A DNA stretch of 64,000 nucleotides from assembly GCA_963741205.1 (NCBI GenBank), contig CAVUHW010000026.1, positions 96,001 through 160,000 of the forward strand, read 5' to 3'. This DNA is from Nitrospirota bacterium. GTDB lineage: Bacteria > Nitrospirota > UBA9217. The position numbers and the translations under genes were made by a program. Under the pieces are notes generated by a model that ran no database searches, had not been told where the DNA came from, and saw only the letters and a program-made list of their open reading frames with translations. Position 1 is the first letter of the stretch; the number at the start of each line of letters is the position of its first letter. Shown piece by piece: positions 1,889-6,473 of the stretch.

Positions 1889-3361
<1,473 letters not shown>

Positions 3362-3550: not shown

Positions 3551-4189
3551 TCATTCAAATCCCGATGACTCGTTCAAAAACGGGTTCTCTCTTTTCTCGT
3601 CGCCAATCGTCGAGGCCGGTCCGTGACCTGAAAAAACCTTGGTGTCGTCCGGCAGCGTCATAAGGTTCTCCTTGATGGAGCGAAGAAGGGTCCTCAGGTC
3701 TCCACCCGGGAAGTCCGTCCTGCCGATCGAACCGGCGAACAGGGCATCGCCGGTGAAGACCATCCCTTCCTCGAGCAGGCTGATGCCGCCCGGCGTGTGG
3801 CCGGGCGTATGCAGGACGGTCAGTGAGACCTCGCCCGCAACGATGCTGTCGCCGTGTTTCAGCAGTCGATCGGGAGGCGGAGACAATACCGGACTCATGC
3901 CGAACGACCGGGCCTGCCTCGATACCGTGTCGAGCACGGGCGCGTCCGCCTCGTGGAGCAGCAGATCCGCCCCTGTGGCGTCCTTGACGGCCTTGTTCGC
4001 GCCAACGTGATCGAAATGCGCGTGGGTGTTTATGATGTACTTGACCCTGAGCCCCTTGTCTTGGATGACCTTCAGGATGTCCCGTGCGTCGTCACCGGGG
4101 TCGATGACGACCGCCTCCTTGGTCTTCTCGTCAGCCAGGATGAAACAGTTTACCTGGAGAGGACCGACTATGAGCCTGATCAAAAGCAT
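3551..4189 (-). CDS. MBL-fold metallo-hydrolase (glyoxalase II/YcbL-like)
   Basis: THAHFDH, HTPGHTPG, GDALF, GRTD and SGHG motifs. Confidence 0.95.
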   Translation of the reverse strand: MLLIRLIVGPLQVNCFILADEKTKEAVVIDPGDDARDILKVIQDKGLRVKYIINTHAHFDHVGANKAVKDATGADLLLHEADAPVLDTVSRQARSFGMSPVLSPPPDRLLKHGDSIVAGEVSLTVLHTPGHTPGGISLLEEGMVFTGDALFAGSIGRTDFPGGDLRTLLRSIKENLMTLPDDTKVFSGHGPASTIGDEKRENPFLNESSGFE

Positions 4190-4217
4190 ACCTAATTCCC
4201 TGCTCCCTGCTTTTTTA

Positions 4218-4310
4218 TGTCATTCCCGCGACGAATCGGGAATCCGGTGCTTTCGAATCATAATCGTTCGAAAAGCCAATCGGGATACCCGCTGATTCGC
4301 GGGTATGACA
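4218..4310. repeat. REP-like palindromic element
   Basis: TGTCATTCCCGCGACGAATCGGGAATCC ... GGATACCCGCTGATTCGCGGGTATGACA. Confidence 0.88.
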
Positions 4311-4332
4311 GTATGATTTTAAAGGTACTTGT

Positions 4333-4854
4333 TCAGCTAAAGTTTCTGCTTCCCGCCTCCAGGTCCAGCAGATTCTTTTTCATTCCGATCCCGCCCGAGA
4401 ACCCGCCCAGCGCGCCTGCTGAGCCGATCACCCGGTGTCAGGGGATGATGAGGGGGACGGGATTGGCCCCGAGCGCGTTACCCACGGCGCGCATGGCCCG
4501 CGGGTTTTTGATCCTCTTCGCGATCCAGGCGTAGGACCGCGTTTCTCCGTAGGGGATCTCCGCCGCCGCACGCCAGACAGCCTGCTGAAAGGGCGTATGA
4601 TAACGCAGATCGAGCGGGAGATCAAATGAAACGCGCTCGCCGAGGACGTATTTCCCAAGCAGCTTGACCGCTTTTCGAAGGATGGGCGGCGTTTGAGCAA
4701 ACTTTTCCGGACTCCGAGCTCCGCACTCATCACCGTTGAGTTCCTTCTCAACTGCATTCTTATTCTTCTTCGGCAGCACGATCCTGCATATCCCGCGTTC
4801 CGACGCGGCTACACCCGCCCAACCAAGGGGAGTATGAAAAATCGCCTTTCCCAT
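4333..4854 (-). CDS. ogt: Methylated-DNA-[protein]-cysteine S-methyltransferase, probable selenoprotein (in-frame TGA at the catalytic position)
   Basis: TPFQQAVW...IPYGETRSY...[36 protein letters not shown]...KKNLLDLE. Homology continues in frame past TGA 4438-4440 to the stop at 4333. Confidence 0.9.
4405..4424 (-). promoter_or_regulatory. Candidate bacterial SECIS hairpin
   Basis: mRNA GCUCAGC-AGGCGC-GCUGGGC: a 7-bp stem with a G-containing apical loop starting about 20 nt after the UGA. Confidence 0.6.
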
Positions 4855-4855
4855 G

Positions 4856-6473
4856 CTAATCTCCCTCCCCTCCTCGCCCCGTCGCCTCGTCACCCCGTCG
4901 GTTCTTCCTCCTCCGCGCCATCCCCCACACGAACTTGAGCTCTTCACTCTTCAAAAGCCACATCACGACGATATAGAATAAAACGCTGACGGTCATCCCG
5001 CCGGCGAGCAGTTCAGCCTTCAGGACCGAGTGTCCGCCCAGCTCCCAGACCGGCTGCCGGCTGACCCACCATCCAATCATTCCCATGGCAAGTGACGCAG
5101 GCACGATCTTGAGGAGTGAAGCGAAAATCCTCTTCCCGTCCATCCTGCCGATCTTCTTCCTGAGCTGCCAGGTGAGCAGGCTGATATTGAGCGTCGCCGC
5201 AAGAGACGTAGCTAGGGCCAACCCGCCGTGGTTAAGCGGTGTCCATGAAATGAAAGCTGCGCTGAAGGTGATGTTCGAAAAAAGCGCCAGGACAGCGATC
5301 TTGACCGGCGTCCTGGTGTCCTGAAGCGCGTAGAACGCCTGAGCAACGATTCTTACGCCGGCCATGGCCCAGAGCCCTACGGCATAGTACAGGAGAGCTG
5401 TCGCCACGCCTTGCGTGGAGATGCGGTCGAACTGTCCGTGTTCCAGGAGAAGGTTCACGATCGGGATACGCAGTGTGATCAAGCCGGCCATGGCCGGGAA
5501 CATGATGAAAAACACAAGCCTGAGGCCGAATGACAAGGTCTCGCGAAATTCCTCCTTTTCGTTTTTCGCCGCCTGAGCCGACATGGTCGGAAGTATGGCC
5601 GTTGCGATGGCAATGCCGAAAATGCCGAGCGGAAAGTGGATGAACCGCATGCCGTAGAACAGGTAGCTGATGCTCCCCGTGGCGAGGAACGACGCGAAAA
5701 TGGTGCCGATGAAGATATTGAACTGGTTGACCGAAGAACTAAAAAAGACGGGCGCCGCAAGACGCGCTATCTTCCCCACGCCGGGATGGCTCGGGCTGAA
5801 CTTCAGTTCCAGCATCATCCCCTGCTTCTTGAGCCCCGGCAGCTGAATCAGGAACTGGAACATACCGCCCAGCACCACGCCGACGGCGACGCCGAGTATC
5901 GGTTGCGACATGAACCGTATACTCAGGACCACGGCGGTGATGGTCATGATGTTGAGCATGACCGGCGAGAGCGCCGGAGCGAGGAATTGACGGAGGGAGT
6001 TCAACATGCCCATGGCCAGCGCGGCCAGGCCGATGAACAGGAGGTACGGGAACATATACCGCGTGAGCGTCACGCCCAGGATATATTTGTCGTGCTGGGC
6101 GTTGCGCACCCAGCCTGCGGCGATGATTTTGACTACCGTAGGGCGCGAAGATGACGCCGAGAACGGTCAGGACGACGAGGACCACAAGAAAGCGCGCGAA
6201 AACCGCATTGGCCAGGACGCGGGCGCTCTCCCTCGATTCCTTCGTCAGCGTCTCGGTGAACACGGGAATAAAGGCCGCCGACATGGAGCCTTCCGCCAAA
6301 AGCTCGCGCAGGAGGTTCGGGATCCGGTAAGCCACGTAGAACGCGTCGGCTGCCAGGCCCGTGCCAAAGGCCCAGGACATGACCATGTCGCGGACGTAGC
6401 CCATGACGCGGCTGGCGAGGGTGGCAAGGCCGACGACGCCCGCCGCCTTTGCGACCTTCACTTTTTCAGACAT
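4856..6473 (-). CDS. murJ: Lipid II flippase MurJ (one frameshift near 6137)
   Basis: ATLASRVMGYVRD...AYRIPNLLRELLAEG in one frame, continuing in another frame with FIHFPLGIFG and AFYALQDTRTP. Confidence 0.95.

Follow-up and report, generated by a model that had tools for sequence, protein, structure and literature searches.

The ogt gene described here, which codes for an O6-alkylguanine-DNA alkyltransferase (Ogt/MGMT) in a Nitrospirota bacterium, is almost certainly an intact gene in which the acceptor Cys of the P-C-H-R motif is encoded by UGA and read as selenocysteine (Sec). It is located at 4333..4854 on the minus strand of the window, i.e., the whole stretch of 64,000 nucleotides that was analyzed (C26:96001-160000). 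We assign a probability of about 0.9 to this explanation as a whole, which comprises Sec insertion at the UGA, suicide repair by the resulting protein, and variation between Sec and Cys forms at one locus. The codon, the domain, the hairpin that follows the codon and its conservation, the selection acting on the tail, and the Sec genes of the organism were observed directly. The predicted Sec form is the majority form of Ogt in one bacterial family, where it is found in 29 of 48 readable orthologs.

The coding sequence begins at an ATG (4854-4852) that agrees with the N-termini of the orthologs, contains an in-frame TGA (4440-4438), and ends at another TGA (4335-4333). The 3′ end of murJ contains a Shine-Dalgarno-like sequence, GGAGGGAG (4861..4868, minus strand), 6 nt upstream of the ATG. 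Read-through of the in-frame TGA yields a 173-residue Ogt with 34 residues downstream of this codon. The protein matches PF01035, the C-terminal domain for DNA binding and alkyl acceptance, at residues 88-167 (profile positions 1-80 of 81, 116.4 bits, Pfam cut-off 27) and the ribonuclease-like N-terminal domain PF02870 at residues 4-83 (28.3 bits, Pfam cut-off 21), and its score with the TIGR00589 'ogt' model is 111.9 bits (NCBIfam cut-off 46.4). In an ungapped PDB alignment with the solved OGT 4wxc (E 9e-32), the TGA occupies the position of the PCHR Cys, and the GxNP (here GANP), HRV and C-terminal LE (here LLDLE) motifs are also present. The Asn of GxNP, the His-Arg that follows the acceptor and the C-terminal Glu act as supporting active-site residues, according to the available text of PMC4150793. 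The protein has both domains, the acceptor position within P-C-H-R and these supporting residues, as do members of the Ogt family. A preliminary description, based on the nucleotide sequence and its open reading frames, had placed the TGA exactly at the PCHR Cys in the minus-strand reading ATC CCC TGA CAC CGG GTG and had described the 34 residues after it as a normal Ogt C-terminus. Both statements proved accurate. The nucleophilic acceptor, U139, would be Sec, and its codon is UGA rather than a Cys codon. TGA serves as the stop codon of 42 of the 86 open frames of at least 200 codons in the window and also terminates ogt itself. This ordinary use of TGA as a stop counts in favor of the Sec reading. 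A second PF01035 gene was not detected in the genome (assembly 84% complete), where ogt is the sole detectable Ogt.

The acceptor codon was then compared among relatives. When 41 related genomes were searched in six frames, 12 orthologs, counting the present one, proved to have a single in-frame TGA. Each of these 12 reads P-U-H-R on direct inspection; the two closest Cys forms and six genomes farther away read P-C-H-R. The survey of the family covered 64 genomes, 49 of which passed the ortholog threshold (E<=1e-30). The acceptor codon was readable in all but G046, where a contig end cuts ogt, and was TGA in 29 orthologs, TGY (TGT or TGC) in 19 and TGG in none. The TGA group includes G044, in which ogt is frameshifted upstream and the acceptor codon is nonetheless TGA, and G078, with masked bases beside the codon. 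An in-frame UGA paired with Cys in homologs is one of the marks of a selenoprotein gene, and here the pairing is seen between positional orthologs. Among the 150 matches listed from 301 genomes sampled from the phylum, with 156 weaker matches outside them, the in-frame TGA was confined to this family. The nearest named proteins to Ogt came from Nitrospirae/Nitrospirota metagenome bins. A search carried out with the motif spelled with Cys returned 80 loci, all of them distant Cys forms (38-57% identity), which were excluded from further comparison. Several relatives (including G001, G010, G018 and G021) carry a second, Cys-type PF01035 paralog that is about 37-41% identical, and some genomes of the same genus carry this paralog alone.

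The genomic context of ogt is shared across the family. In the window, murJ (lipid II flippase, 4856-6473, minus strand) is directly upstream, and its TAG stop codon (4858-4856) is separated by 1 nt from the ATG of ogt. Downstream are a gene for an MBL-fold hydrolase (3551-4189, minus strand) and guaB (IMP dehydrogenase, as judged from sequence motifs; 1889-3349, minus strand). Of the 48 family loci, 47 have murJ upstream of ogt and 45 have the MBL hydrolase gene downstream of it; every exception is a locus that a contig end cuts or that has short flanks. This shared murJ-ogt-MBL order indicates that the Sec and Cys forms are positional orthologs.

The codons beyond the TGA are subject to the same degree of purifying selection as the codons that precede it. 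Pairwise Nei-Gojobori comparison of 28 TGA forms (G052 was omitted because its contig ends inside the hairpin) produced a pN/pS of 0.195 over the 24 codons that follow the TGA, compared with 0.175 over the 10 that precede it. In an untranslated tail, pN/pS would drift toward 1. Purifying selection past the TGA implies that the tail is translated, as is the sequence after the UGA in selenoprotein genes.

A stem-loop stands immediately 3′ of the UGA, the place of the SECIS element in bacterial selenoprotein genes. The core hairpin (4405..4424, minus strand) consists of a 5′ arm at 4424-4418 (GCUCAGC), a loop at 4417-4412 (AGGCGC) and a 3′ arm at 4411-4405 (GCUGGGC), as the preliminary description had proposed, including a loop about 20 nt after the UGA. 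The spacer between the UGA and the hairpin is 13 nt, the stem has 7 bp, and the 6-nt loop, which contains GG, starts 20 nt past the UGA; the spacing and the loop were judged against the rules usual for bacterial SECIS elements. The minimum-free-energy fold suggests, tentatively, an extended lower helix with two further runs of 4 and 5 pairs (4395..4435, minus strand). When the sequence was folded by itself, the region reached -32 kcal/mol over 66 nt (z -1.54), a value equaled by 16 of 200 shuffles, so the single sequence folds no better than expected by chance. The argument for the hairpin comes instead from the comparison with relatives. All seven pairs of the stem can form in 24 of 28 TGA forms and six in the other four; none has five or fewer. 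The corresponding numbers among the 19 Cys forms are four with seven pairs, two with six and 13 with five or fewer. The local hairpin had a mean energy of -13.2 kcal/mol in the TGA forms versus -7.6 kcal/mol in the Cys forms. The sequences compared are related by descent, so the Mann-Whitney figure for the stem comparison overstates significance and was not relied on. The four Cys forms that have a perfect stem (G045, G054, G065 and G068) fit a recent reversion from Sec to Cys.

Synonymous diversity points in the same direction. In the 28 TGA forms it was 0.58 in the 10 codons before the acceptor, 0.26 at codons +1 to +12, which include the hairpin, and 0.59 at codons +13 to +24, and the values for the same three segments in the 19 Cys forms were 0.59, 0.65 and 0.63. 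The drop is confined to the hairpin segment and is seen in the TGA forms only, a pattern that argues for a constraint acting on the RNA. In 27 TGA forms, 90.3% of the cells for the lower helix and stem were paired. Covariation in the same 27 forms amounts to one compensatory change in 16 pairs (A-U, G-U and G-C at one pair), a score matched by 216 to 345 of 500 shuffles. The hairpin overlaps the conserved peptide SAGxLGG, and part of its conservation is due to the protein, which fixes part of the sequence. The sole compensatory change in the stem was found in the 3′ arm at locus L141 (G069), which has G-C where the others have A-U or G-U, and it costs a Leu to Pro replacement in the conserved AGxLGG peptide. 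A search of Rfam (E<=10) identified no SECIS family at 4300-4500; it returned four chance-level matches to archaeal small RNAs (three snoRNA families and one antisense RNA). A consensus terminator was not found in 4150-5000.

As checks on the Sec reading, the preliminary description had named selA, selB, selC and selD in the genome and TGA/TGY pairs in relatives. The 29 TGA and 19 TGY codons of the 48 readable orthologs supplied the latter, and the full set of genes that accompanies bacterial selenoprotein genes is present, with selA frameshifted in the assembly. The selA (C26:85393-86485) and selB (C26:86674-88560) genes are located about 12 kb upstream of ogt on the same contig, with selA about 10 kb ahead of the window. 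Two tRNA-Sec genes with anticodon tca were identified at C45:23391-23485 and C30:27060-27152 (63.5 and 57.8 bits, above the Rfam cut-off) and confirmed by ARAGORN. The assembly has an estimated contamination of 4.9%, and the two copies could represent a real duplicate or a contaminant contig. Neither is inside selB, unlike the arrangement reported for some Nitrospirae in the available text of a 2026 review (PMC13188914). The selD match (C14:97717-98643, 352 bits) includes one in-frame TGA, in SSCAG-U-ASK, followed right away by a hairpin of its own. This TGA is probably at the Sec/Cys position of SelD, and the selD gene of this genome is itself a predicted selenoprotein gene. Upstream of the match, the contig continues for about 26 bases.

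Within the family, selA was found in 55 of 64 genomes; among these are 25 of the 29 genomes that carry the TGA form and 16 of the 19 that carry the Cys form. Reversion to Cys is consequently not tied to the loss of the Sec trait. In the remaining four of the 29 genomes with the TGA form selA was not found, and one of the four, G021, is 96% complete. The frameshift in the present selA is near contig position 86270, and the first part of the gene continues into selB as a single open frame. If the frameshift were real, the cell could not make Sec. The break is read as a probable assembly indel, because murJ is broken in the same way, because only five of the 55 selA matches are partial or fragmented (the present one and those of G044, G050, G051 and G071, the other 50 covering the whole model), and because of the state of the other assemblies with partial matches: G044, G050 and G051 consist of 7 to 10 contigs with 71-91% completeness, and G071 is in 390 contigs.

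Assembly quality also bears on the possibility that the TGA arose by nonsense mutation or through an error in base calling, in which case ogt would be a pseudogene or misassembled. This possibility is favored by the indel defects in selA and murJ, by the gene callers, which stop the protein at residue 138, and by weak independent read support. An indel of one base near 6120-6135 divides murJ into two frames that overlap (...VIFAPY / VVKIIAAGW...); since murJ is essential, the split is most likely an assembly error. When sequencing runs were searched, no RNA run was listed, the best share of query words was 0.13 and none reached half. Four runs, each from a different study, were compared with the window. 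A 221-base contig (X1) is identical to the window over 4435-4655 and includes the TGA, 3 bases from the contig end, and it may stem from the window's own source sample. Contigs of relatives (X3 and X9) span the codon, with no change at 4438-4440 among the differences listed, 22 more lying outside those listed. Read support for the TGA codon is thin. A check of reads at 4438-4440 had been advised in the preliminary description; the identical contig agrees with the TGA and is too little to count. On the other hand, an error would have to coexist with TGA at the same codon in 28 other genomes of the family, with a pN/pS of 0.195 in the tail, and with a hairpin that is kept specifically in the TGA forms. 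Furthermore, the other assembly defects seen are indels, not substitutions. The preliminary description had made this last argument from other defects in the window, and murJ in the window and selA nearby, each frameshifted, agree with it. Taken with this evidence, a nonsense mutation or sequencing error is extremely unlikely. A probable selenocysteine Ogt, as originally suggested, is supported by the TGA/TGY orthologs, the Sec machinery, the selection on the tail and the hairpin-specific drop in synonymous diversity.

Another possibility is that the UGA is decoded mainly in some other way, by Trp read-through (giving P-W-H-R), by insertion of Cys through the Sec pathway at low selenium, or by termination, which would leave a 138-residue DNA-binding fragment, and that any of these products is the working form or a second working form. 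P-W-H-R is the motif of alkyltransferase-like (ATL) damage sensors, in which Trp or Ala replaces the acceptor Cys and the N-terminal domain is missing. The UGA is one base away from TGG and from TGY, and neither a separate ATL nor a Cys-type Ogt was detected in the 84% complete assembly; otherwise nothing direct speaks for such decoding. It is opposed by the TGA-specific constraint on the hairpin and the family-wide Sec machinery, which indicate SelB-dependent decoding, and by the fact that TGG has been fixed in 0 of 48 orthologs. Termination in particular, with a fragment that ends before the acceptor, leaves the purifying selection on the tail unexplained. Decoding mainly by one of these routes is very improbable. 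The gene product was also considered as an ATL protein, and this was ruled out: the codon is TGA and not TGG, none of the 48 orthologs has TGG, and the N-terminal domain is present.

The following mechanism is proposed for the Sec-containing Ogt. During translation, SelB and Sec-tRNA(Sec) would bind the hairpin located 13 nt past UGA139, the UGA would be decoded as Sec, and the last 34 residues would then be made. The product would be an O6-alkylguanine-DNA alkyltransferase with Sec as the alkyl acceptor. The selenolate in the P-U-H-R pocket would take the alkyl group from O6-alkylguanine in one irreversible step, as in the Cys forms, at the cost of one Sec spent per lesion. We infer Sec insertion, repair activity and any rate advantage that the lower pKa and stronger nucleophilicity of Sec might bring.

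A maximum-likelihood tree was constructed with 48 family and six outgroup sequences of the 170-residue protein, after masking of the acceptor column. Sec forms alternate with Cys forms in this tree, and nine Sec/Cys changes are needed. Only two of them are forced by well-supported branches, because the resolution of the tree is poor and 28 of its 51 inner branches are open. G054, a Cys form with a perfect relic stem, is nested among four Sec forms, in a clade supported at 97%. Cys is the state of the outgroups and of the first family member to branch off. From the synteny, the Sec and Cys forms would be variants of one locus that has switched repeatedly. On the simplest reading of the tree, Sec was gained once, close to the root of the family, and several reversions to Cys probably followed. 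A stronger proposal takes the Sec form as ancestral as well as the majority form in the family, with several Cys reversions at the same locus while the Sec machinery was retained; in its bolder version, the UGA would act as a selenium-dependent switch between repair routes. We consider this proposal very unlikely. If the Sec form were ancestral and the Cys forms reversions, selection would be maintaining Sec in a protein to which catalytic turnover offers no benefit. If the bolder version held, selenium supply would set the product: Sec would lead to direct reversal, Trp read-through to an ATL-like P-W-H-R damage sensor, and termination to a fragment.

The customary explanation for the use of Sec is that it speeds up redox catalysis. 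Because an alkyltransferase acts a single time and is then destroyed, a natural Sec form is a test of whether nucleophilicity by itself can repay what Sec costs. The 29 predicted Sec and 19 Cys orthologs at one locus, some of the latter with the hairpin, provide a natural comparison for the cost of Sec and the decay of SECIS elements. The codon also affects annotation. Among the 120 matches listed, the called proteins that end at residue 138, right before the acceptor, are the window's own and five others, and the other 114 are full-length Cys forms. Since the callers truncate at residue 138, the sole Ogt detected in this genome would enter the annotation as a fragment.

A gene of the same kind is found in Carboxydothermus hydrogenoformans, a member of the Firmicutes. 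Wu et al. (2005; PMC1287953) described its CHY0809 as an MGMT with an active-site Sec and a stem-loop after the UGA, and in the available text regarded it as unique and recent. By the published description, CHY0809 shares with the present ogt the PF01035 domain, a UGA in place of the active-site Cys codon, a stem-loop after this UGA and Sec machinery in the genome, and both are predictions from Sec/Cys homology. The two genes differ in their probable origin, Firmicutes versus Nitrospirota, and a single case in 2005 compares with 29 of 48 family orthologs. Sec-MGMT also has a row in tables of selenoproteins, with two Sec sequences in the Olavius symbiont data (PMC1976440) and one in GOS (PMC2398784), and it is tabulated as a selenoprotein family in the available text of PMC9312934 and PMC13188914. 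The statement in the preliminary description that Sec versions of the family were already predicted, and rare, holds for the available text of PMC1287953, PMC1976440 and PMC2398784. A limited literature search found neither a biochemical study of a natural Sec-MGMT nor a report of Nitrospirota forms.

An artificial counterpart is the engineered human AGT C145U (Sec145), which shields ada- and ogt-deficient E. coli from MNNG (Haruna et al. 2014; PMC4150793). It resembles the present protein, as predicted, in having Sec at the alkyltransferase acceptor position, and differs in being artificial and UAG-encoded, with delivery by EF-Tu and no SECIS. The finding that Sec is functional in the AGT fold, as given in the available text of that study, is counted in favor of the Sec reading of ogt. 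The N137A variant of human AGT is active with Sec only (PMC4150793, available text); the natural Sec forms studied here retain the equivalent Asn, in GANP. The Cys-type Ogt/MGMT proteins (4wxc, 4bhb, the C-terminal domain of E. coli Ada 1sfe and human AGT 1eh6) have the same two-domain layout as the present protein and share with it the helix-turn-helix DNA-binding domain, the GxNP hinge, P-x-H-R-V and the C-terminal LE. The present ogt is unlike them in that its acceptor codon is UGA and not UGY and in the SECIS hairpin inside its coding sequence. The present gene is a well-supported selenoprotein gene of a kind that has been in print since 2005, to which are now added its family-wide distribution (29/48), the positional orthology of the Sec and Cys forms, the constraint on the SECIS and its decay after reversion, and the truncation at residue 138 by gene callers.
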